A stretch of DNA of 61,672 nucleotides, filler included, from Basidiobolus ranarum (taxonomy: Eukaryota): NCBI GenBank assembly GCA_040143965.1. It is 15 parts of 15 records of this genome, joined end to end, with 100 filler letters (N's around TTAATTAATTAA, not from the genome) between each part and the next. Parts side by side here need not be neighbours in the genome. Positions count along the whole stretch, not along the records: positions 16,508 to 20,529 come from JASJQH010009029.1; 14 more parts are not named here. The stretch is one strand, 5' to 3'. How positions within the stretch are numbered: the first letter of the stretch is position 1; each line of letters begins with the position of its first letter. Position numbers and translations under genes: made by a program. Positions 4,130 through 56,598 of the stretch are shown piece by piece. The notes under the pieces were generated by a model. The model was not told the origin of the DNA and searched no databases. It saw nothing but the letters and a program-made list of their open reading frames with translations.

Positions 4130-6738
4130 ATCTGAAAAGTGAAGGTTTCTTTGATAACATGTATGATCATGCATTTGCATTGGCTCTGGATGGTTTCTCA
4201 CTAAACAAATACACCATTGGAAAGGCTTGCTGGCCAATAATTTTGATCAACTTAAATCTTCCTCCTTCTGAATGGTATAAGAGTCATAATATTTTGATAC
4301 TATCCATCATATCTGGACCTAAATCACCAGGGCTTATAGATAGCTTCTTGGAGCCTTTGGTTGCGGAATTTCAATGGTTATCTAATGGTGTTCAAATGGG
4401 TGATCATTTTACAAAGGCATATTTCATTGTATGTATTGGTGACACTCCTGCCACCTATAAGCTTCAAGGTTTTTGCAGGCATGATGCACTATCTTGCTGT
4501 AGATTTTGTCAAATCAATGGAGTTTACACTATCAGGCATACACTTTACTACAATCAAAATACAACACTAAACTCCATGATTTTACAATCATGAGGATGAT
4601 CAGATTTCAGCATGATCACTAATATCAATTCATGAAATAGCCTGTATAACATCTAACTTGGTATTAGCCATAAGCCAAAGATTATATTGCTAAAGGGGAT
4701 CAGCTGGAGCCAGAGCTTCCCATTAGGCACTATGCACTTACTATTTAACAACATTGTAATACTATTTACTCAGCTATATAGCGGAAAGTTCAATAGGAAT
4801 GAGCCATTGAAGATAGGATCAAAGTTTGAATCAATTCCTTTCGAAAATGATTAAAAATGTCAAGATATACTCATATTTTACCAGGACTCTCATCAATATC
4901 CACTCATCTAGGTGTTTGTACAAATGCAAAGACTGGAGGTATTGGATTTGTGTATATTCAACTGGATTCTTGAAAAGATTTCTACCTGATAAGTATTGGC
5001 AACTTTGGGAGTTGCTTGTCAATATTATTTGTATATTCTGATGGCAACAACTCACATTGGCAGATCACAGGCAGATACAGTAGCTGTGCAAAGATTTTGT
5101 AATTGGAGATGAAAAACCTGATTACATGTAAGAAGAAGATAGACTGAATCAATGTAGGTATTCAATACATTCCCTGCTGCATCTTTCACAATGCTTAGAT
5201 ATTATACACCCTTGTTATACATTCTGGGAGTTCCCAATGGAGTGCATCTGTGGGTAATGATGCTCCATGTTAAATCCTCTATATTTCCATATGCTAATCT
5301 GATTAATGGTGTATCAGCAAAATCAGTGATGGATGTATTGTAATGGGTTAAGGAGATTTCTAGGTATATTAACCTTTCAACAATGAGCTTTTTCCAATGT
5401 GCTCATGGGTTCTCACATTGTTTGAGCACAATAACAGCAATAAAATGAAATTGATGGACACAGAGTACTACCTCTGTAATTTTGACCAATTTGTTTGTCT
5501 GATTATCTGACAGTATTTCTAAGAAAGCTGCAAAACACACTTCTGGGGGAGATAGATCAAGATACATAGTATTCACATTTTAGCTAAGGCTAATCTATTC
5601 AAGCAATGACACATCTCCTTGTGGCAAGACATTTGTTGACTGCAAGTTTGGGATATATTGGCTGAATTCTTTATCAAAATTTGCCCAAAATCCATGAGCT
5701 TATTCTCATTGTGAATGGTAACAAGTGTCACAATAAGGAACTGGAAAAGGACTGGAAACCACAACAAGAGGCTAGAAGGCAGGAGAGTACTTAGGTGTAG
5801 ATCATAAGATAAGACTGGACAAAGAAGATAGTTTGGCAAGAATCTTTATTGATAACTGACATTGTTCAGACTGAGATCTGATCAAGGAATACATGGGGCT
5901 TATATAGATATTGCAAGGTGAAACATAATATACTGAATAGGGAATATACTCTGGCAAGTTCAAGAGTCAGCATGTGGGGACTACAAGGACCAATACAAAG
6001 AGGGATGATGTAAAGATGATCAGGTGACCTTCCATGGAAGGTCTTGGCAGAAATACACCATATGTTGGATGACATGATTGTTCAGGTTTCATGGAATGTT
6101 CCAAAGAACATGACTTCCATATAAGGTAATCAGGATGAACCAGCACAAGATTGCCAAGAAGGGATGGCACAGCAGACAAGATGTCAAAATCTAATAATAG
6201 AAGAGTTCTGTTTGCAGTGGATCAGTATGCCAAGATTAGAATCATGACAACAAGAGTCAGATATTTGCTAAGTGTCAGTGCTATTCAAAATTTCAGATGT
6301 TTAGCAATTTTTTCACCATTAGTTTGCTGGTAAAGCATATTGATGTTTTTGAATTATGTGTGATAAGTCAAGTATGTGCATATGTAAAGACTAAGCACTA
6401 CAAGATTCTTGTATTTTTTGATTCTCATTATGGCTGGAATACAAAGCCAAAAATTTCTAAATAAAGACATGCATATTGATTTGAATTCCTACAGCAGTAA
6501 ACCTGGTAACTTGCCATTTGGAAATTATATTGTTACAAAAATTGCTGGAAATTATTAACACATGTCAAATATGAGGATCAATATTTTAACATATATGAAT
6601 ACCATCAAGAAACCATCATCACAAAATCAAAGTCCCTGTGAGAATGCAAGCCACTGATATTGTGATGGTTGTCTGATAGTTTTGTGATTTTGGAGAGTGG
6701 GTCCTATCCTGATTACTTTGATTTTATTTTTGTTAGGG
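4130..6738 (+). mobile_element. CACTA/EnSpm-type (Transposase_21/TnpD) DNA transposon relic with its 3' terminus ...TTTTGTTAGGG
   Basis: LALDGF...CWPIILINLNLPP..WYK.HNILILSIISGPKSP..IDSFLEPLV.E, IGDTPA..KL.GF..H.A...CRFC, and the downstream H.L.HL...GP...WEFPME motif. Homologous copies at 50240-51815, 59570-61500 and 35130-35584. Confidence 0.88.
5726..6249. mobile_element. Solo LTR (probably Gypsy-type) with a 5-bp target-site duplication, nested in the CACTA transposase
   Basis: Ends TGTCACAAT...ATCATGACA, flanked by ACAAG at 5721-5725 and 6250-6254. Removing it restores the transposase sequence seen uninterrupted at about 51000-51050 (minus strand). A partial copy lies at 49590-49761. Confidence 0.88.
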
Positions 6739-16100: not shown

Positions 16101-16173
16101 CTCCTAGTTGATCCTGAATTAATCTACTTTATAAACACACACTCATCACCACACAACTGGACTCTCTAGCGCC

Positions 16174-16407
16174 ATGTCTCCCTCAAGTATATTAGAGGAT
16201 CAGTCCAAGTCCCCCGATTTTTATAGTTTCTCTACTCCAGTTTCTCGATGTGCCTCCCCCTTCTCTGACGAGGAGGAGGGTGACGAGACGTGCTCCGATC
16301 AAGGCTGTGCATCCCCCAATGAAAAATCCATGTTCTTGAATTTCACCTCGGACCTCAACCCTCAAAATTCCATAAAAAAGCAGAAGAACAAGAAGTCCTC
16401 CACATAC
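16174..16407 (+). CDS. 5' end of a gene cut by the contig end (acidic/Ser-rich N-terminus, possibly a transcription factor)
   Basis: ATG in GCCATG context, TATAAA at about 16130, and the frame is open to the contig end. Confidence 0.6.
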
Positions 16408-16783
16408 NNNNNNNNNNNNNNNNNNNNNNNNNNNNNNNNNNNNNNNNNNNNTTAATTAATTAANNNNNNNNNNNNNNNNNNNNNNNNNNNNNNNNNNNNN
16501 NNNNNNNCAAGATTTTTCCTTACCATCAATGTACCCAACCCCCTCTATCGATTTTTATTTGACCCACTGGAACTCACGGGAACATAGATAAAAATTTCAA
16601 AACGTTAAAATAAACTTGAACGTCTCCAACTAAATACTTTTCTCCTGTTATTCCTTATTTCTGTTAACTTTCTTCTAGATATCACTTTGAGAACCTGTTC
16701 TTGATTTGTGTTGATAAATTCCTCCTTTTTTATTAGAGATCCTCACTTTTGACTACCTTAAACAGTTTCCATATATACTAGTG

Positions 16784-17621
16784 ATGACTACTTTAGTATC
16801 TCCTGCCTCAACGCCCACCACTGGACTTAAAGTTAAATTGCGACTTTCGAATCCCAAAAGTCCTTCCATCTCTTCATCCGTACCTCAAACAGATTCTTCT
16901 CCTGAGGTTCTTGAACAAGCCGGAGAAGAACACAAAGATAATCTGGACTCAACTTTCGATAGCACACCTACTAAGAAACCTCGTTATAATGAGTATGCTC
17001 CAATGCCTTGAATACAAATTAGATCTTTACAAAGGCTAACTTTCCTTCTAACAGCTCTGAGCCAAATCACGTCGAGGTTCCTTTTTCTGAAAGTAAGTAA
17101 CTTCTTTCACTTGTAACGTTCAAGAAAATACTTTCAGTTTACAAATATCAGAGTTAACTCTTTATTATCGTACCAGCTATTACTAATACCCCAAATGATA
17201 CTAAACGTGAGGGAGTGGAAATGCCACGAAAATGGCAGAAACGTTCTTTGGTAATTCGTACCTTGACAGGGGAGGTATCCTTTACTTCGTGGCGTCCAGG
17301 TAAACTAGACTTCTGTAAATCCTACTATATTTGAATGTGTCTTTAACCAGGGTTTCTTATAATTTAGATGGCCCGCCTTTGCTTAAGCGCCCTGCAACTA
17401 TTGAAAAGTTCAACTCCCCACACCCTATAGCTGACTCTACTCGTCCGGTACCCTGTGTTTATCCTGGATGTAATCGTAACTTTACTGACCAAAGTGGCCT
17501 AACTAAGCATATGATAGTTCACGGACCTAAAACCTTTTTCTGTGGTCTGGATGGATGTGCAAAGAGCTTTGCCGATCGTACACGATTAAGAAGACATCAG
17601 AGAGGTGTTCATGGGCAGTAA
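16784..17621 (+). CDS. YY1/Pho/Iec1-like C2H2 zinc-finger protein with a REPO (2W-hairpin) motif; 4 exons, 207 aa
   Basis: Exons 16784-16992, 17055-17092, 17177-17299 and 17368-17621, with GT-AG introns in consistent phase. Exon 3 encodes RKWQKRSLVIRTLTGEVSFTSW (YY1: [22 protein letters not shown]). Exon 4 encodes two C2H2 fingers joined by the YY1-type HGP linker. Confidence 0.85.
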
Positions 17622-18290: not shown

Positions 18291-19085
18291 CTATATTTCG
18301 GGGTTTAGTATCTTGGATCTAACGGCAATCTCAACAAAGTTGGCCACAGTTGGTCCTAAGAGGGCTTCGTCGGGTCTTTTAAAGTCTTTTGGCAGTCGCT
18401 CATGAGCAAATACATCCATCACCGCTTCTTTGGAGACCTTTCTGTCTTTACCAAAGACATCCACGAATATACCCATTTCGAATTGTATGATGGCCTTTAG
18501 TCTGGGAGTATAAGTAACATTGGGATTGTTTTTCAAACTGTGTAGGATGCGCTTATTACTTAGTCTGGCAAAATCCTCCAACGTAAATGTATTCCCATCA
18601 CTCGCAGAATTCTCCAGTTGTCGAAGCAGCTCTGGGTCAGCATTTACCGGATCCCCTAGGTTAGTATCTTTACGTGATAGTGAAAAATCGTGCTCTATTA
18701 AGTTATGAACTCTCAGGTCTTGGAGACTTGGTATAACCATGCTTGAGTCTGTATATTCGCCTATATGACTATAAAATACTGCCACTAACACATCGCGAGG
18801 AAGAGGGTGCACATTTAATGAATCTTCCAAGCCCTGTCGTAATTGATAAATGGTAATATTCCTCCCAGAGCGTGGAAGGTAGCCATGGTTAGATAGTGTA
18901 TTCAAGACAGGACATGGCCCCCGAATGGCATTCCTCGGCTTTTCCCAGTGGTGATCCTCTATTGCTAGTCCATCTTCGAGATCTAGAGTAGCCGATACCA
19001 GCTGACCTGACAAGCAAATAAGTAATAAGCAAGCAAGGGAAAAACTCAGGCGATGTACGAGTAATTCTTTAAGCGTGTACCACAT
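18291..19085 (-). CDS. Heme-thiolate peroxidase / short unspecific peroxygenase (Peroxidase_2 family), intronless, probably secreted
   Basis: RGPCPVLNTLSNHGYLPRSG (PCP heme ligand), IEHDFSLSRKD (EHD-S-S) and a hydrophobic N-terminal segment. First ATG at 19085. Confidence 0.92.
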   Translation of the reverse strand: MWYTLKELLVHRLSFSLACLLLICLSGQLVSATLDLEDGLAIEDHHWEKPRNAIRGPCPVLNTLSNHGYLPRSGRNITIYQLRQGLEDSLNVHPLPRDVLVAVFYSHIGEYTDSSMVIPSLQDLRVHNLIEHDFSLSRKDTNLGDPVNADPELLRQLENSASDGNTFTLEDFARLSNKRILHSLKNNPNVTYTPRLKAIIQFEMGIFVDVFGKDRKVSKEAVMDVFAHERLPKDFKRPDEALLGPTVANFVEIAVRSKILNPEI

Positions 19086-20370
19086 GACGGAGGCAAGTAA
19101 CAATCAATGGAAGACTCTTTTGCCGACCTGAGTTGTGATCACCTCTACCTTAGTTTATAGTTATATATCCATTGTTTCAATTCCATTTCCTCTATTGCTT
19201 TGTTTCGGATACTTCTTCAGATCCATCAAACTATGTTTCCACATTAGACAGGTCAGATACCATTCCTTCGTAACTAGTTTCAGCTTAAAGGTTGGAATCC
19301 CTGCATATAACACAGTTCTACTCTGAATCGCGATCCTCAATGAGGATTATCTATATGGGTAGTGGATGGATTAATTGAGCTTCACCGTACTAAATGAATC
19401 AACAATGTATTTGGTTTTATGCTTTAATCAGGCATTGTTGTCATACTCACCAACGGATCCTAGAATACTTTGTTTGGCCTTTGTCGGATTGATCAAGGTC
19501 CGTACAGATATGTACAAACCCTCCTTAAATCATCCATTCTACTACCTTCTGCAATTGTAAGCTATCTCTTAAGTCACTGCCATTAGACAGATCTCCATGC
19601 TGATGGCTATTTGGCCATCTTGCTCAATTCTTGGATTGATTTTGGTTATTTAAACTGCATCAATGTACTGGCTATCTAAAGCTCACAAGGCCATTGTTTT
19701 ACAGCTTCCTTTGGTGGCATATCTCTATTTCACCTTTCACTGCCTTCTTATTAATCAGATAGTAGCCCATTTAATTAGAGTCTAATCAGAATTGGGTTTA
19801 TCGCTGAAGATCAAACACAGACCAATGTACAAATAATCTCGTTGCAAACAATCGAGATTTGTTTCACGATTACATGATATTTGAGATAAACTGAAGCAAC
19901 ATGCAGTGTGTATTTATTGTTCTGTTGAATTGAAGACTAATATATTGATATTCCGTATTGCAAATGAAATGATAAGATGCATGATTGTGGTTCTGGAATG
20001 TGAAAGAAGCTGGGGAAAGTGTTTGGTAAGTTTCCGAGCAGGTTTGAAGGTTTTGGTTTGATTCCAAATTTCAGAGATTTTGCCATGACCATGCTTATTC
20101 TTACGATCAAACAAATAGTCTAGGCATGATATCAGTTAAAACATTGGAATTGTATACCTGACTATTCATAGAGCATATTTGGTAAAAACCACACTGCTTA
20201 CTTGAGTATCTCATAAGCCAAAACCATAATATACATTTTGTATATCTCCAAAACCATGAGAACTGACCAGGCTTGCTGAAACATCAGAGCTAGCTACCTA
20301 AATATTCATATAGCACATATTTCTTCCAACCATATTGAACATTTTCTATTTCATCCCAAATACTTGAAAA

Positions 20371-24649: not shown

Positions 24650-24809
24650 NNNNNNNNNNNNNNNNNNNNNNNNNNNNNNNNNNNNNNNNNNNNTTAATTA
24701 ATTAANNNNNNNNNNNNNNNNNNNNNNNNNNNNNNNNNNNNNNNNNNNNTGCCTGGGTTTGTTAATGAAATCCTTTTTAACGTACTAACCATTGTTTCTT
24801 TCTCAAAAG

Positions 24810-25408
24810 GAACCGACCACATAATCACCATGGACTTACACGATCCCCAATTCCAAGGATATTTTGATATCCCAGTCGATATGATTAGCGCCGAGTCTTC
24901 CATCCTTGACTACATTAAATCTCAGATACCCAACTATCGTGATGCTGTTATTGTCTCTCCGGATGCTGGTGGCGCCAAGAGAGCTACTTCAGTTGCTAAC
25001 CAACTTAATCTCGATCTAGCTCTCATTCACAAGGAAGGAAAGACTAACGAGATATCTCGAATGTCCTTAGTTGGCGATGTTCAAGGAAAGCCAGTTATAA
25101 TCATCGATGATATTGCTGATACATGTGGAACTCTCGGCCTTGCCACGGAGCTGCTCCACCAAAGAGGTGCTACGGAAATTTATGCAGTGGTTGCCCACGG
25201 TATCCTCTCTGGAAAAGCCATCGAGATCATTAACAAGTCTCCAATGAGTCAAGTGGTCGTCACTAATACTGTTCCTCACGAAGAGAAAAAAGCTGGATGT
25301 AGCAAACTTCGTACCATCGATGTATCTGGACCATTCGCAGAAGCCATCCGAAGAATCCACAACGGTGAAACGCTAGCACCCCTTTTCAAAAAGAAACCAT
25401 ATGTCTAA
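24810..25408 (+). CDS. Ribose-phosphate pyrophosphokinase (PRPP synthetase), last exon
   Basis: Branch site TACTAAC at 24783 and acceptor AG at 24809. Motifs ITMDLHDPQFQGYFDIPVD, VSPDAGGAKRA and IIDDIADTCGTL (PRPP-binding loop). Confidence 0.95.
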
Positions 25409-32467: not shown

Positions 32468-32888
32468 TTAATTACCAACAACTTGCTTTTCAACATCAGA
32501 AGTTGGGCAAGGTGCAGGCACAGACTGAAGACAAGGTGCGTTAAACACAGCACCGGAGTATATTCCACGCAGGGTATGAATAGCTACAGTGAACCAATTG
32601 AGAACCAACCAACAGACAAAGAATGATGTCAACCCATGGAAGAATCGAGAGTGGGTAGCAATAGCGATGTTGAGAGTACCAGCTGTAAACACACCGAGGG
32701 GGAAAGTAAGTCCCCACCATCCCATATTATAGGAAAGTGTCTGCCGTCTGACCACCATCGAAGTCACAGCAAAGATTAGATACCATAGGCCATATGCCCA
32801 TAAGAAGAATGCTATAATCACACAGCATGTAAAAGCACTGTCTCCGAACCCAGGCGCCCACTTATCACCAACAACCTTCTGAGCAGCC
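32468..32888 (-). CDS. SLAC1/TDT family transporter (Ssu1/Mae1-like), C-terminal part
   Basis: FLWAYGLWYL...YNMGWWGLTFPLGVF signature; frame open to the contig end. Confidence 0.9.
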
Positions 32889-41260: not shown

Positions 41261-44200
41261 ATGACCGCACACCACGAACCAAAATCTTTCTTAGATATCG
41301 AGGAGCCACATGAGCTCGCAGATAGTTTCCGATCTCGTCACGTTCACTTCAAGGGGTTATTTGCGAGTTTATCAAAAGATGCTACCGAAGTTAGAAGAAA
41401 TTCAGCAGAGAAAACTAAAGAAATTTCCGAGCGTGAAGGAAAAATCTTTAGTAGAGCTACAAAGTGTATCGAAAAATTTTGCTGGCCTCTTCCCTATCAT
41501 CCATATGTTAAAGATAATAATATGGACGCTGCTCAGTATTTTACTCAAATCCCCGTACCTCAAGGAAACGATTCTTACTCTGCAACTCCTAATCTTATGT
41601 CACCTCATCCAAGCCAAATAGTCTCAGTTAGTCAGACCAGGTATACTTCATTTGATATACCTCAGATCTTGTCACCTGTTAATAGAAAAATATGTACGAA
41701 GTCCAAATAGGGAGTCCCCTTCCCAATCTGTTAGAGCGAATCTCCGTGAAAAAGCATCACATGCAAGACCTTCAAGGTAAGTGTAGGAGCTAGGCTCTTG
41801 TATTCCGTAATAGTGACACACCTTGAGATATACTAATCACGCCACACAGCAGTAAACATCAGACCGATTCTAGAAAAAAATTAGATACTCAACGAACGAA
41901 GGAAGACTTCGACATTGTACGTTGTATTTATTTCATGAGTAATTATATACTTGTAAAATAATCTAATGACTATCAACTAGATTATCGCTGGCCTCTTGGA
42001 AACAATCGTCAAAATCAAGGTATATAGTTATATAGATCCCTGGCCAACTATGGTCTTGAGAGCTCACCAATTCCATTAATATACAGTCGGTGCCTAAATT
42101 CACCGAATTTAGTATTCCTACGGATAAGCCTAAGGCCAAGAAATCCAACCTTACATCTACCAAAACTCAAGAAAAGAAAACTATCACAAATAATGAGAAA
42201 GAGGAGGGAGAAGCAAGCGATGATGAAAGCTACGTCAAGCGGTACGTGAATCATGTTCAAACATATTGTATGGCTTATGCTAAATCTTAACTGAACAAAA
42301 GGAATAAGAAAGATGTAGAGAAGGTTACTATATCAAGGTATATTGTGAGAATACAATTTTTCAAGGTATGTTGTTATTAAAAAGAGGCATATATATATCT
42401 GTAGTAAGCAAAATGGACACACCGGCGATTTGAGAAAATCAGAAACTCCGATAGATTCACACGATATTAAAGTGGAGAGGTATTTGTGATTATTATGGAA
42501 ACAGTAACAACTCGAGGACTAATACTTTATCCTGTGCCATCTTCTGATGTGCGTATGTAGAGTAAAGCAAGCTAAGAGGCTTTCAGGTGAGGTTGATTCT
42601 GAATCTGATACAACGAACAAAAGACTCAAAACGACCGGGAAAAGGTACCCAATCCGAAGAATTGTTAGGCCTTTATAAATCTTATGTTTTCCACTATTAA
42701 CCTGGGGAAATTATTGCTAGGGAAATATCTACAAAACAATCCGAAGTTGATCCCAATACCGTATCTTCGTTTGATAAACCACGTCCCGTCAGTAAAAGGT
42801 ACTTGTTTTCTTGTTCATAACTGGGCTCGAAGCTGTAGTTCACTTCAACTCTCGCTAACTATCCTCATTATTTTTTAGTAAGCCAAGTCCTAAATTTTTA
42901 TCCAAAGATCAATCTAACTCCTCCAAATCACTAGTTGTTGAACTCAAGTATCCAGACAAAAGCAAGAGTAATAAGCGTGATCCCGTCAGACGCAAAAATC
43001 GTGGTAGCTATTCTAGTTCAGAGGAAAGCAATGGTGATTCCGATAATGATAATAGATCTCGCCGATTAAAGGATTCGAAGTATGAAGCGGAAGAGAAAAT
43101 ACCTATCAAGAAGGGAAACTCCAACCTCAACCGCACTCAATTAGATGAAAGTAATCGCCACGTCAACAACGAGACTAAGAGAACCAAACTACCTGTAAAA
43201 AGCAAACCCTCCTCCAGACAATCTCAACATACCGATTCTGATTCCGACGTGGATACACGTGTGAAAAAGAACCCCAAATCACGAAAGAGCATGGAACAAC
43301 ACCCTGACGATTCTGATATCAATACGAATTTGGATATGAAAATTAAGGCTGCTAAAGCCGCTCGACGTTCTCAAAATGAAGAATCGGATGCTGATGCTGA
43401 TATCGAACCCAAGTTAAAGAAGATAAAAGCCTCTAAGGTTACAAGCTCCAAGCCTAGCCGGCATAATGATTCTGATATCGAATCAGATATTGATTACAAG
43501 ATAAAGAAGATCAAAGCTAATCGCTTTGAGAAGAAGGTCGATGATACTGGTAATGAGCCCCAGTACAGAAAGCGATTATCTACTGACCCTGCTCCTGATA
43601 AAAAGGCGATGGGTGATTCTTCCTTGGATAATGAGCTTTTAACACCGACCAACAATGACAGTAAAGCAAGACGTATATCAAATCGCTCCCCTAAAGCAGC
43701 CAAGCCTCTCAAACGTTCAAGTTCCGTTGTTTCATATAGTGATGAGAGTGAGGCAGAGAAGACTAGGAGTTTCGCTATTCCCGAGGTAGAGCAAAGAAAC
43801 AACGCCACAAAAAAGAATGGCAGGTCCAAAGCGAAGGAGTCGACAGATTCCAGTCAAGACCCCAAGTCTAGGCGAAATAAAAACGTGGTCCTCACCGATG
43901 TAACATCGGATCCTATCAAAAATAGAGCCATCAAATCGACCAACACTAAAAGAAGCAAAGAAGTGGATACATCTGAGGTTTTCTCTGAACCTAGCAAGCT
44001 GAAATCTGCATCTTCTGTATCTCGCAAAAGCAGAGATTTAGACCTTGAGCAATCAATTGAATCCGTCAAGGTCAAAACATCGCGCCGTTTGAAGGAAACT
44101 GATATTGCCGAAGACAAAACACCACAGCCTTCTATTTCTCGTAAATCCAAAGAAGATATCACAAGTGAAGATGAAAAACTCTCTCAAAGAGCATCTATAC

Positions 44201-45234
44201 GTAAAGTGAAGAAGGATGTTTCCCCCACTCGAGAGAGACGCGTCGAAAGGAACGATGCTATCAAGTTAAAACAATCCAGTGAAGTATTGACCTCGCCTAG
44301 CCGAAGTAAGAATGACAAAAAAAGGATTAGATCAGATGATACACCATCTTCACGTGAACATTCCAGACCTTCTTCTAGTTTACAAAGCAAAAAAAGCGTC
44401 GAAGATGTGGATTCTATCTCCAGAGGTCGTAATTCTATTGTTTCTAAAGATAGGAGCAGGAGTCGATCAATGGAGCGTCGAGAAATAGATTTCCAAGAAA
44501 GAGAGCGAACGTCTTCAATTGATAAAAGATCGAATGTTGACAAACTGGACCGAAGCTCGTCCACTCTCTCCGAAAAATCTTCATCAAGAGATCGTCAAAG
44601 ATCCCGCGAATCCCGAATTCAACGTAGACCTAGTCCAAGTAGATCTCAGTCCCCAATACGTCGCAGCAGAGATGACTCACGGGATTCCCGGGTTTCTGAC
44701 CGACATGACAAAGCTTCTACTCTTGATAACTCTCATACTTCAACTAAGCCTATTGACGACAAATACAGTAGCTCCAAACATGCATCTGCTGATAGAAAAT
44801 CCACCACCGTCAAGAGTAAAAGTCGCGATAATATCGAGACTGATGATAGGAACCGAAGTCGATCAAAAGATGAAAGTCGCGACAATACAGATATTGAAGA
44901 TAGGAAACCTAACCGATCCAAGGAAGAAACAAGCGAGCTAAGGAAATCACGACCAAGCTCGACAAACACTCAAGCAGCAGAGAGCAAGCAAAGAGAATCC
45001 ATCGAAACTACCCAGAAGAAGACCTTGTCTCTGGCCGACTACCGTAAGCAGAAACCTGAGGTTAAAACAAGTCGATCGGCCAACTCTAGGGATGATAGCC
45101 CTAAAGAAACCAAGAAACCTAGTTCCGAGAATGGTTCTTCGAAAGACAAGACTGAAAAGCACCCAATCGCCAAGTCTACTGATTTATCTCCCGAGTCAAC
45201 TAAATCCTATGGGTCTGGTGTCCCGGCCGCCTCT
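41261..45234 (+). CDS. Multi-exon gene for a large low-complexity S/R/K/D-rich (probably nuclear) protein, 3' end missing
   Basis: Long exon 42879-45234 is open after GCTAAC...TTTTTAG. Several short GT-AG introns lie upstream, but their exon boundaries were not resolved. Confidence 0.75.
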
Positions 45235-45334: not shown

Positions 45335-46341
45335 ATAGCCCCAACTCAAACGGTAAGATACTGAGCAGTTTTGTTACCATAGATAGAAGTAAATATGGAG
45401 GTGGAGTAGTACATAATACTGTTAATACCACAAGGTTACTGGATAATACATAGGAACATGTATAGGAAAGCGTGTTTGCGAGTTAACGGGTCTTGCATAA
45501 TGAGTCGGAAGCCATCCATCATTGAGGTTTGTTCACCTCTAGCTTTGGCCTGAGCACGGACATCTACCATAGTTTGAAGCTCATTTGTAATATCCATACC
45601 TTTATGGAGTTTGAGTAAGGATTTTTCCCCATCTTCAATACGATCCTTGTAAACATAATAGCGAGGAGTCTCAGTGACGAATGATAGAGTGACTAACTGA
45701 ATAATGGCAATAACACCAGTGATCGCCATACATATACGCCAGCCGACACGACTGGATAAACCGAGTCCACTGGCTGGAGTAACCAATTGTCCAATGACAC
45801 ATGTAAGTTGGGTCAGAGCACCATAGGCACTACGAACCTGGGTATTGGATATTTCACCGATATAAGTAGGGACAACAGTTCCAAAACCTGAGCCAATACC
45901 GGTGAATAGACGTCCAACGATCCACTTTCCCTTGCTCTTAGAGAGCCCAATAAGCAATGCGCCTATAATAAAGAAAACGTTGTTGATTAGCAGTGAGTTA
46001 CGACGGCCAAATCTGGCTTGGGCCCAGCCCGCAGAAAGACCTCCAATGGCTCCATCGATAGAGAAGCTACTCGCAGCAAAACCCCGCATCTAGTCACTTG
46101 TCGGGAAACAACTGGGGAATCCGTTTACTTTCTCATCGGGATTATCGCAACTGATAATAGATGACTGAATGATATTGGTATCCGAGGTATTCCAGCCATT
46201 ATTGAATGAGACCAGGCAAGTGATGGAAACACAAAATATCGAATGGATGGAGAACCCAGCTTGTGATGAGTCAGTTGACCCTTTTGCCTCTTTAGCAGAA
46301 CAGCTAAACATCTTTGATATAGTGTTACGTTCAGTAAACAC
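45335..46341 (-). pseudogene. MFS sugar-porter (GLUT-like) pseudogene
   Basis: SFNNGWNTS, RFGRRNSLL, VPTYIGEIS, ETPRY and Q*PCGINSIMYYSTSIF. In-frame stops at 46090-46092 (TAG where Trp is expected), 45436-45438 and about 45347. Confidence 0.88.
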
Positions 46342-47628: not shown

Positions 47629-48519
47629 TTAACGACGGGCAATGGTGGCAGTGATTAAACCAGATGGGTCACTGACAGGTTGGAAGATGTTCATATCCTT
47701 ACCTTCGTTAGGAAGGTTGAAAGGCTTGAGGTTGACACTGAAGTAATGCTTGTTGGGAAGAGCATAGCTGATTTCGCTAACATCCTTGTAGTCACCCAAG
47801 ACCTTCTCTCCCATACGGTACATGGTGGCTTGAACTGAGGCAGAGTCATCAGTGGCAAAGGTGCTTAAGGTGATTTCACGAGCACCAGTGGCAATTTCAT
47901 CGAAAGGAATCTCCTCAACCTTGGACTTTTCAAGGTTGTAGGTCCACTTGGCATCAACACTGGTGGAGAAGATACGGTCGGTGGCATCTTGAAGAGTGGT
48001 GTACTCACAACGATGGAAGTTGGTGAAGGATGAACCGGTGGTCTTCAACACAAGGAGATCCTTGAGGCGAGACTCAATGGTGACCTTTCCACTGCGAGAA
48101 ACGACTAACTCGGCGCGTCTGGTCTCCTCACCATCACGAAGGAAGGAGTGAGGGTGAAGTTGACCGTCAATGTTGACACGAGACCAACGGTGTTGGATGA
48201 TGTTGACATAAACATCATCGACATGGGAGTATCTGTTGATGAAGTGTTGACCGATCTCATAACCGAAACGCTCAATGGTTTGAACGTTGTTGGATTTCTT
48301 GGCAAGAACATAGATGGTGTTCTTGACGGTGTCGGTGGGGACAATGGAGCTGTTGTCAGCCTCAGTGTAAGAGGTCTCAAATTTGCCATCAAGAAGAACT
48401 TGGCAAGTAAGTTCAATAACATCGTGCCAGTTCTGGGTGTGACGAATGACCTTGGTGACGCGAACCTTGGTCTTGCCATAGGCTTGTTTCTTTAAGTAAG
48501 CACCAGCGTTAGAAGACAT
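47629..48519 (-). CDS. uox: Urate oxidase (uricase), 296 aa, intronless
   Basis: YGKTKVRV, DNSSIVPTDTVKNT, VLKTTGSSFTNF, DRIFSTSV, SASVQATMY and LPNKHYF; strong bias toward C/T-ending codons. Confidence 0.97.
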   Translation of the reverse strand: MSSNAGAYLKKQAYGKTKVRVTKVIRHTQNWHDVIELTCQVLLDGKFETSYTEADNSSIVPTDTVKNTIYVLAKKSNNVQTIERFGYEIGQHFINRYSHVDDVYVNIIQHRWSRVNIDGQLHPHSFLRDGEETRRAELVVSRSGKVTIESRLKDLLVLKTTGSSFTNFHRCEYTTLQDATDRIFSTSVDAKWTYNLEKSKVEEIPFDEIATGAREITLSTFATDDSASVQATMYRMGEKVLGDYKDVSEISYALPNKHYFSVNLKPFNLPNEGKDMNIFQPVSDPSGLITATIARR

Positions 48520-49192
48520 TATGTTGGATAAAAAGACTGACAAATTTGAACAATCAAAATCATTTGAGGAGAGGGTGGTTTTATATGATGATGGGGAGTA
48601 GAAAGCTCGGAAACCCAATTGATTCCAATAGATTATAATATTAAGTTACACATTTAGAAATACGGAGATTGTGTTTATTTAGATGGATAATCAATCTTGT
48701 CAATGCGAAAAATTCTCGACTAATTTAGATGTCCGTGACCAGATAATCAGTATAAACTATACTCGTGGTGAATCTCCCTTCTAGTTTGTCTTCCTTTTTG
48801 TTCTCAAGACGTATACTAATTTAGTACCAGTAATTATTCCCATGCCATCTGTGATCCGACGCTTAACCACAAGAACTTTCATCTTTATGTCTAGGTGTTG
48901 ACGGGTTTTAATTGTGCCCAGCAGATTAATTAGGATTAGAACATTTAAAACAGTTAAACTCATGTGTTAGTGAAACATGTATGTCATCGCTAGTTTCAAT
49001 TGATAGTAAGAATTCGGGTAGGGTTGTTGGTCTAGAACTTGGTCCATACATTACTACGATAACAGTTTCAATTAAATTTCATCTTAATACAGTGAATATT
49101 TTATATAGACAATAATTTATTTTATGCGATAAGATCACAGTGAATGATATGCTTAATGCTAATTAAGTGAGAAAACCATTACATTGGTTAAC

Positions 49193-54552: not shown

Positions 54553-56314
54553 TCACAGTTTCTTTACTTTAGTAGGTTGAGTGGTTAGATTCAAGGCATT
54601 AATGAACCATATAGCGGAGTTCACAAATATCCCAGATAAGCCCACAAGTATGGCAAATAATATAAGGTACAAATCATAATTATGAGCCTTCCAAAAGCTC
54701 ATTCGAGATTCGGGAGTTTGGAATAGCCTCTTGGTTGGATCATCTTCTGGTTTGGTGAAGATCAAGTGTTCAGCTACATCTGCCGCATGGTTAATTCGTT
54801 TGGAGTTTATATGAGCCAGGATTTGCATGTGTTGTACACTCCTCTCAAATTTTCCATCGTTGTCCTCAACTAGTTGTGTTGTTTTTTCAATCATTTCCGC
54901 TGATGTGAAGGTTCTTAAATTCATCAGTATAGAGACACCGGAAGCTTCAAGATTGCCAGCATTATAAAAATGATCGCCGAAAACCGGTAAACTTAGTACC
55001 TTAGTACCAGTAAGCAATGCCTCATTCGAACTATCCAAACCACCGTGTGAAATAAATAGAATAGTGCTGGGATGTGATAAGATGGAAAATTGGGGGGCGA
55101 ATTTGAGAATTCTAATGTCGCGATGTTCATTATTCAGAACCTTTCGTGTCGAGATGGTCGAGTTGTTGATTTGCATCTCTGACGGGAAATCATCCTCGGA
55201 TGTTTGTGTAAGTGGCCATATAACCCCATCAATTACTCCGTCATCAAGTAAATGCAAAACGCTTCTCAATATCTTCTCCACAGAGGCGGTGTCAAGATTT
55301 GCAACTGTACCAAATGCTATGTAAACGACCTTCTGTCGCTCACCAAGGAATGACGACAGTTCTGGTGTCAATGGTGGATACTCACGAGACATCAAGGGGC
55401 CAATGAGGTGTACATTGGGTGGCAAGTGTTTTGGACTCTAGAGAGCAGGGTTAATATCTGGTTGAGTCTTGGCCAATCATAGTGGATACCTACCTCGACT
55501 CCGAAAAAGCTATTGGCGAAGATAATACCTTTATCCATATTGTTAAAGCCAAATTCCTTACGAGCCACACCACCAATGCTAACTCGATCTTCATTTACTT
55601 TTCGAGCAAGTTTCCATTCCTTCCAGAAGTATAGTATTTCGTTGATGATATTAGTTCGGAGCCGATCCAAAATTCCTGGCTCTTGTGTTGGGATGGGTGA
55701 GAGATCTAGAAAAGTAGAGATATATCCAGATGCCGAATGCACTAAATAGATATCAGTATTGAAGCCAAATAATATTGATATAAAAAAGGCTTACATAATG
55801 CCAGAGAAGGAAGTTGTACAGTGAACGGAATGTCTAAGTGATGAGCAGCATCAATGCAACCAAAGTTAAAGACATCGCACATAACCAGGTCGGGTTTTTC
55901 TTTGTTGAATACTTTAAATAACTGCATGTAGGATGACTTATATGAAACAGGCCAGATTATATTGACTAGTTCGTGAATATCCATTATAGGCTTCAGTACG
56001 ACATTCTGCATCAATTTCCTGCCTTCATCTAAAGGTACGGGTAACTCGCCCATTGGTATTTTCTCGAATCCCCAAGGCTTTGCTAGATCTAGGAAAAAGT
56101 CATAGCTTACGAAGGTTACTTCATGACCACGCTCTTTCAGAGCTGTACCAATCTGAAATATCGGTTTTGCATGAGAATATCCACCATAATGAGATGAGAT
56201 AAAGACCTTTCTCGGTTGGTGCCAGGTTTGATTCAATAGGCTCTGGCTTGCCGTCTGGCTTGCTGTAGCCAGAGTGACGAGTGTGGATAAGACGAGTAGT
56301 TCAGTTGATTTCAT
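54553..56314 (-). CDS. GT1 UDP-glucuronosyl/glucosyltransferase, type I ER membrane form; 3 exons, 550 aa
   Basis: Exons 56314-55795, 55741-55494 and 55437-54553 (GT-AG, in phase). Signal peptide, SH catalytic motif, signature FAPQFSILSHPSTILFISHGGLDSSNEALLTG...LPVFGDHFYNA, C-terminal TM helix and KVKKL. Confidence 0.95.
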
Positions 56315-56598
56315 GGTGAATTGAGGTTGTTCTCAAAGTCCAGTGTGCCTTTATACAGTCTCATTCAAAAACTTGAATTCCTTGGCCATTCTAGATATCG
56401 AAAGATACAAATACAATGTAAAGCAATCAAGAAAAAATCAGATAAAAATATGCCAAGTGTAACTCTAGAGACACACAGACAAACTGTGTAAGAATCATCA
56501 TATGTAAAGCTTAACTCTGGTACTACATAAACAAGCTTCGCACACAGCATATGATTGGTTTGGTTTAATATGAAATGCAATCTACTCTACGGCAAGAA

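Follow-up and report, generated by a model that had tools for sequence, protein, structure and literature searches.

The locus and its gene model

The window, meaning the whole 61,672-nucleotide stretch of Basidiobolus ranarum DNA analysed here, is composed of contigs of about 4 kb joined by N44-TTAATTAATTAA-N44 spacers. Because these joins are artificial, neighbourhood across a spacer carries no meaning, and window genes outside contig G000:C9029, which starts at window position 16508 and bears the gene of interest, are uninformative on synteny. This gene, predicted at 16784-17621 on the plus strand, comprises four exons separated by GT-AG introns of 62, 84 and 68 nt and encodes a yy1-like protein of 207 amino acids, with a disordered N-terminus, a two-Trp hairpin, a conserved linker and two C2H2 zinc fingers in that order.

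Exon 1 (16784-16992; aa 1-69) specifies a low-complexity, predicted disordered N-terminus that includes the motif LKVKLRL (16826-16846; aa 15-21). It is followed by intron 1 (16993-17054; phase 2), the 38-nt exon 2 (17055-17092) and intron 2 (17093-17176; phase 1). Exon 3 (17177-17299; aa 83-123) is the hairpin exon, the REPO/2W hairpin itself extending from R100 to W121 (17227-17292, with W102 at 17233 and W121 at 17290). Beyond intron 3 (17300-17367; phase 1), exon 4 (17368-17621) encodes the linker, finger 1 (C153-H175; 17454-17528), finger 2 (C182-H205; 17541-17612) and the stop codon, all on the plus strand.

On the same contig, a heme-thiolate peroxidase gene (Pfam Peroxidase_2, E 2.8e-45) lies convergently at 18291-19103 on the minus strand. 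Elsewhere, the window contains a Transposase_21 fragment (4130-4593), a PRPP synthetase (24750-25408), a SLAC1-type channel (32468-32888), a sugar transporter (45436-46089), a uricase (47629-48645) and a UDP-glycosyltransferase (54553-56332). A non-ribosomal peptide synthetase fragment with condensation, adenylation and carrier domains (Pfam) fills its contig at 37107-41121 on the minus strand, and a long, charged, low-complexity open frame at 42859-45234 on the plus strand has no Pfam match. The open reading frame at 16135-16407 was considered as an upstream exon of the yy1-like gene and ruled out, as it belongs to another contig, before the spacer.

The window sequence alone does not yield a unique gene model, because our own enumeration found 38 possible open splice chains in it, one of which is the chosen exon set. 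The four-exon model is fixed by the existence of an identical 207-aa protein in NCBI/UniRef (KAK9685291.1, an automatic prediction labelled 'Transcriptional repressor protein yy1 [Basidiobolus ranarum]'), by matching genomic copies and by selection on exon 3 in this frame. A search of the 65-Mb assembly (13,754 contigs) with exon 3 returned only the three known copies, namely that on C9029, a near copy on C12512 (98% in exon 4) and a far copy on C7044 (84%). DNA alignments show that all three retain the donor of exon 3, the acceptor of exon 4 and the position of the stop, and the predicted models of the copies place three introns at matching sites with phases 2, 1 and 1.

Comparison of the two near copies over aa 99-207 reveals 26 synonymous changes and 2 non-synonymous ones (dN/dS 0.019). 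The hairpin codons account for 4 synonymous and no non-synonymous differences, and the 57 finger codons for 12 and none, respectively. The first 98 residues are under relaxed constraint (dN/dS 0.39-0.46). For the hairpin codons, pS relative to the far copy is 0.82 versus a pN of 0.08, with synonymous sites saturated; strong purifying selection acts on the exon that carries the hairpin. A sequence-only reading of the window had proposed this exon and frame, and all the motifs it quoted were located where it had placed them; the conserved splice sites, the purifying selection and the identical database protein establish that the exon is real in that frame. Contig C12512 begins at the same base as C9029 and is identical to it for about 110 nt before diverging, with dS of about 0.43 across the conserved portion of the coding sequence, a pattern that suggests homeologues, arising from genome duplication or hybridisation, which split at an assembly node.

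The two-Trp hairpin and the zinc fingers

Searches of 177,635 PDB sequences relate the hairpin to the REPO domain of YY1. With exon 3 alone as the query, YY1 REPO (4c5i) was matched at E 0.012 with 10 of 23 residues identical, and Pho was also matched; a designed WD40 repeat scored slightly above YY1 REPO, through summed repeats. When a profile of hairpin and linker built from five sequences was used, YY1 REPO ranked first (E 6.8e-4), with Pho in third, fourth and seventh place of 15. Exon 3 has no match in Pfam, and the INO80_Ies4 family (PF08193) was matched neither by exon pieces at E 0.5 nor by whole proteins at E 0.01.

Structural modelling points to the same group of proteins. AlphaFold2 predicts two strands, at residues 102-111 and 114-123, with pLDDT of 87-90, and disorder for residues 1-95 (pLDDT below 50). 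When the isolated hairpin model was compared with 350,542 chains in Foldseek, places 1-6 were occupied by three Pho REPO chains and three chains of Chaetomium Ies4, the latter derived from structures of the INO80 A-module, at E-values of 0.41-1.1 that are not significant by themselves. A hairpin fold common to Pho REPO and Ies4, as the initial reading had supposed, is borne out by this ranking. Hairpin identity in the structural alignments is 36% to Pho versus 21-22% to Ies4, in keeping with its description as an animal-like REPO sequence; the model superposes on Chaetomium Ies4 with an rmsd of 3.1 over 32-33 columns. Both Trp residues, which had been expected to be conserved, are invariant in 5/5 homologues, a set that is entirely from Basidiobolus and includes two B. 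meristosporus proteins. One of these (P0005) stops within finger 2, because of a faulty gene model or because the protein has been truncated further.

The fingers lead to YY1 independently of the hairpin. With exon 4 as the query, the YY1 finger domain ranks first among the 177,635 PDB sequences (E 3.7e-18), and since each module separately selects YY1 first in the PDB, the proposed YY1 kinship of both holds. In this top match, finger 1 finds its best single stretch in YY1 finger 1, scoring 21.6, 7.9, 11.1 and 18.0 bits against YY1 fingers 1-4, respectively. Its HGP linker, one residue short, aligns without gaps to YY1 fingers 1-2 alone among the five alignments shown, and its helix positions -1, 2, 3 and 6, as read from the alignment, are D, S, G and K, compared with D, S, A and K in YY1 finger 1. 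Judged by these sequence features, finger 1 is the counterpart of YY1 finger 1.

Finger 2, a Pfam zf-C2H2 match with C-X4-C and H-X4-H spacing, is ambiguous among the YY1 fingers. It scores 12.8, 9.8, 11.1 and 14.9 bits against YY1 fingers 1-4 and 19.8 bits against GLI finger 5, and a profile of the finger pair scores equally against YY1 fingers 1-2 and 3-4 (32.2 and 32.7 bits). The helix residues read from the alignment are D, T, R and R, beside E, S, K and R in YY1 finger 2 and Q, T, N and S in YY1 finger 4. Finger 2 probably corresponds to YY1 finger 2, its Cys residues spaced further apart, an assignment favoured because the mosaic expected from an internal deletion is the reverse of that seen.

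The claim that the protein has only two fingers was upheld. Two fingers followed by a stop are present in 3/3 genomic copies, and no further C2H2 finger occurs in the 2908 and 3027 bases past the stop in two copies, the third contig ending 176 bases past it. Hidden exons for fingers 3-4, reached through a possible donor at 17618, were ruled out, as no finger lies downstream. For the more specific proposal that fingers 3-4 had been lost, the evidence is mixed: two of four are gone, finger 2 as a whole scoring best among the YY1 fingers against finger 4 and having a helix like that of finger 2. A second, four-finger YY1 gene was also sought in the genome and rejected: in the five next-ranking finger loci (36-45% identity), the linkers are of TGEKP type and the hairpin pattern is absent. 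The genome also contains a related family of three- to four-finger genes (C7173, C1650 and C4042) with an IQRSALxVH finger, several of which are clustered on C7173.

Whether the remaining pair still reads DNA sequence is a separate question. The sequence-only reading held that sequence-specific DNA binding had probably been lost, which is unsupported in view of the absence of non-synonymous changes against 12 synonymous ones and the YY1-like recognition helices, which are nearly invariant among the homologues that have them. The fingers are under constraint as tight as that on the hairpin and evidently function, but such constraint does not discriminate between specific and non-specific modes of binding. 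Msn2, Mig1 and Adr1 are specific two-finger DNA-binding factors. On balance, it is somewhat more likely than not that the fingers retain sequence specificity, albeit reduced.

It is possible, if distinctly less likely, that the protein is an INO80 subunit whose fingers no longer read sequence, and instead make non-specific DNA or RNA contacts or provide a protein-binding surface. Half of the four YY1 fingers are missing, and in YY1 it is chiefly the C-terminal fingers that recognise the CCAT core. A CCATnTT-type site is the motif quoted for AtYY1. In addition, a docking study singles out three YY1 fingers as those that matter for specific binding (PMC2905368), and YY1 fingers 1-2 are described as the main RNA-perturbed region, a finger 1-2 construct shifting RNA with low specificity (PMC5100589). 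Against this stand the codon pattern and the nearly invariant helices, together with the capacity of two-finger factors to bind DNA, as described for Loz1 (10.1101/2024.09.20.614115).

A candidate client of the INO80 A-module

The hairpins of YY1 and Ies4 both sit on actin-Arp4 through two Trp residues (Kunert et al., PMC9733932), and Ies4 is called a YY1 orthologue in the same source, where it is described as lacking a recognisable DNA-binding domain. By analogy with these proteins, the most likely role of the Basidiobolus protein would be that of a YY1/Ies4-type actin-Arp4 client of INO80. The explanation that best accommodates the data, and one that is quite probable, is that of a shortened YY1 descendant that acts in the INO80 A-module as its 2W-hairpin client, in the slot taken by YY1 in humans and by Ies4 in yeasts and moulds.

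Most of the partners considered are encoded in the genome. Ino80 (DBINO, E 1.8e-48), Arp4 (best matches ACTL6A and Arp4) and actin with a conserved C-terminal Gly-Pro segment were found, and Arp8 was not identified. A Pfam search of the genome for Ies4, a weak search run without a positive control, gave no match. A complex prediction from the single sequences of the hairpin (aa 94-132) and a fish actin, run without Arp4 or controls, scored 0.01, a value that carries no weight either way; the fish actin used as a stand-in is 83-85% identical to the pieces of the genome's own actin.

By extension from homologues of known structure, W102 and W121 would clasp the actin Gly-Pro near its C-terminus, and the hairpin would span actin and Arp4, thereby stabilising the A-module. 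The fingers, carried on a conserved 30-residue linker, could retain nucleic-acid binding close to the extranucleosomal DNA that this module engages. Their target would most likely be a site of about 6 bp, shorter than the full YY1 consensus, or possibly RNA, and they may thus give INO80 a weak targeting arm.

More speculatively, the N-terminal motif may bind an ET domain of the Taf14-like or Bdf1-like type. The ET-binding consensus of Taf14 is hydrophobic-x-hydrophobic-basic-hydrophobic-basic-hydrophobic (PMC7442819), to which LKVKLRL conforms; the motif is present in 3/5 homologues, including this protein, and missing in 2/5. When aa 1-98 were shuffled 100,000 times, 102 shuffles contained a motif of this type; 46 other open frames (13,307 residues) contained none, and the window had 16 in 123,340 six-frame positions. 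These background rates flatter LKVKLRL because it was noticed before the test. Bdf1-like ET-domain genes exist at two loci in the genome, as do two similar YEATS genes (G000:C35 and C7222), one of which was checked and has Taf14 as its best PDB match, with a putative ET exon. ET-domain binding by LKVKLRL is best regarded as plausible from its sequence. In the far copy (G000:C7044, 3028-3477, minus strand), intron 3 is 60 nt long, in frame and stop-free, and its retention would add VRLKLKI, which fits the same consensus that the N-terminus of this copy does not; the occurrence is probably due to chance in AT-rich DNA.

In principle, the hairpin might work outside INO80, whether in a different actin/Arp4 complex (SWR1, NuA4 or SWI/SNF) or, following the Pho-Sfmbt example, with an MBT protein, but this is unlikely. 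The 2W motif is common to several remodellers, with Rtt102, BCL7, Swc4 and DMAP1 given as other clients (PMC9733932; PMC11761322), and the three gene copies might differ in partner. Nevertheless, the hairpin matches YY1/Pho and Ies4 in both sequence and fold, and Rtt102, BCL7 and Swc4 are absent from the 15 sequence matches and the listed fold matches. As for an MBT partner, the genome does encode an MBT-like repeat protein (G000:C6948, 2941-6791, minus strand; a 929-aa frame), but this sole match in the fragmented assembly has two widely spaced MBT/chromo-like repeats, not four in tandem, and no four-MBT protein of the Sfmbt/MBTD1 kind was found there. In the C6948 gene there are also AT-hook-like motifs and, downstream, an exon rich in Cys and His; it resembles PHF20-type proteins rather than Sfmbt.

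Relatives of the INO80 client proposed here have been recovered only from Basidiobolus. Protein searches yielded 5 relatives among 12 candidates of 81-261 aa, 0 among 59 of 364-2000 aa and 5 among 3664 of 100-373 aa, all five being Basidiobolus proteins. In HMMER, the hairpin-and-linker profile gave 19 matches among 1.84 billion representatives, comprising 2 Basidiobolus proteins and 17 multi-stretch proteins; a family scan that covered 16 of the latter, but neither P0016 nor P0022, identified 15 as WD40 proteins and assigned 1 to no clear family, and fingers were seen in none of them. WD40 proteins score on this profile because their scores are summed over repeats. A metagenome scan confirmed 3 of 63 pattern matches, all of them unrelated finger proteins with no hairpin by inspection. 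The ESM Atlas returned generic finger clusters, with ZFP42, a YY1 paralogue, at rank 3, and nothing for the hairpin; a whole-protein fold search likewise retrieved generic fingers, with those of YY1 in 19th place. No relatives outside Basidiobolus were found by these searches, which are to be regarded as insensitive because they also missed human YY1, no full-length YY1 being returned.

It is highly improbable that an unrelated fungal two-finger factor carries a REPO-looking, Trp-flanked segment by chance, for, short as the motif is, genus-restricted as its detected relatives are and readily as WD40 repeats score on the profile, two separate segments rank YY1 first in YY1 domain order, the HGP linker fits YY1 fingers 1-2 alone without gaps in the alignments shown, the WD40 scores are sums over repeats and the blank searches were insensitive.

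Relation to YY1, Ies4 and Iec1

The Basidiobolus protein shares with YY1/Pho the REPO two-Trp hairpin, a first finger of YY1 type with its HGP linker and the domain order of human YY1. It differs in finger number, two where YY1 has four (five in plants), in length, 207 residues against 414, with about 30 residues separating hairpin and fingers, and in the absence of a detected four-MBT partner. Lacking four fingers, it is classed as a variant derived from YY1 rather than as a canonical member. The Ies4 proteins of Saccharomyces, Chaetomium and Schizosaccharomyces likewise possess a two-Trp beta-hairpin, but are described as having no recognisable DNA-binding domain, and the low hairpin identity and missing Pfam INO80_Ies4 match set them further apart. 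Iec1 has two fingers. Compared by published descriptions only, Iec1 of S. pombe and IEC-1 of Neurospora resemble the Basidiobolus protein as YY1-like fungal C2H2 proteins tied to INO80 recruitment: both are named as the fungal YY1 counterpart (PMC8373062, PMC5406019), and IEC-1 is reported to be required for INO80 recruitment to a promoter (PMC5406019). In the S. pombe complex as described, however, Iec1 and Ies4 are separate subunits. Rtt102, BCL7, BDH, Swc4 and DMAP1 are similar as two-Trp hairpin clients of actin-Arp modules, but belong to SWI/SNF, SWR1 or NuA4, and none of the five occurs among the sequence matches or the listed fold matches. Additional literature drawn on includes PMC12956369, PMC10146089, PMC12326766, PMC7000912 and PMC10097750.

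The protein had initially been regarded as an ancestral-type opisthokont subunit, a view that is not supported. Plant YY1 (AtYY1) is described as combining REPO with five fingers, and INO80 of the ciliate Tetrahymena as co-purifying with a four-finger YY1. Because plants and a ciliate have YY1 proteins with at least four fingers, the four-finger state predates opisthokonts, which makes the two-finger protein derived. Its layout is intermediate between full YY1 and the finger-less Ies4 of yeasts and moulds, in an early-branching fungus. A tentative and rather doubtful extension would make it a surviving intermediate in the breakdown of fungal YY1, in which a four-finger ancestor lost two fingers, leaving the form that persists in Basidiobolus, and was later split into Ies4, with the hairpin only, and Iec1/IEC-1, with the fingers, in ascomycetes.

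No report of a hairpin-plus-finger protein in an early-diverging fungus was found in the open-access literature, where the alignment in Fig. 1E of PMC9733932 may include a relevant fungal (e.g., S. pombe) sequence; as far as these searches show, the architecture appears previously unreported. Its importance is limited in that REPO-plus-finger YY1 is known from animals and plants, an automatic 'yy1' label already exists and the range shown is one genus. If the proposed fission is true, the claims that YY1 is orthologous to Ies4 and to Iec1 would both be half right, and the protein would represent a natural minimal YY1 that targets INO80 via a shorter site or RNA and has its own ET-binding motif for Taf14. 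As a fungal protein with both modules, it offers a testable bridge between the counterpart of YY1 recognised by structure (Ies4) and that recognised by fingers (Iec1), and, by isolating finger 1, or fingers 1-2, of YY1 in nature, it may permit a direct test of their role without the rest.
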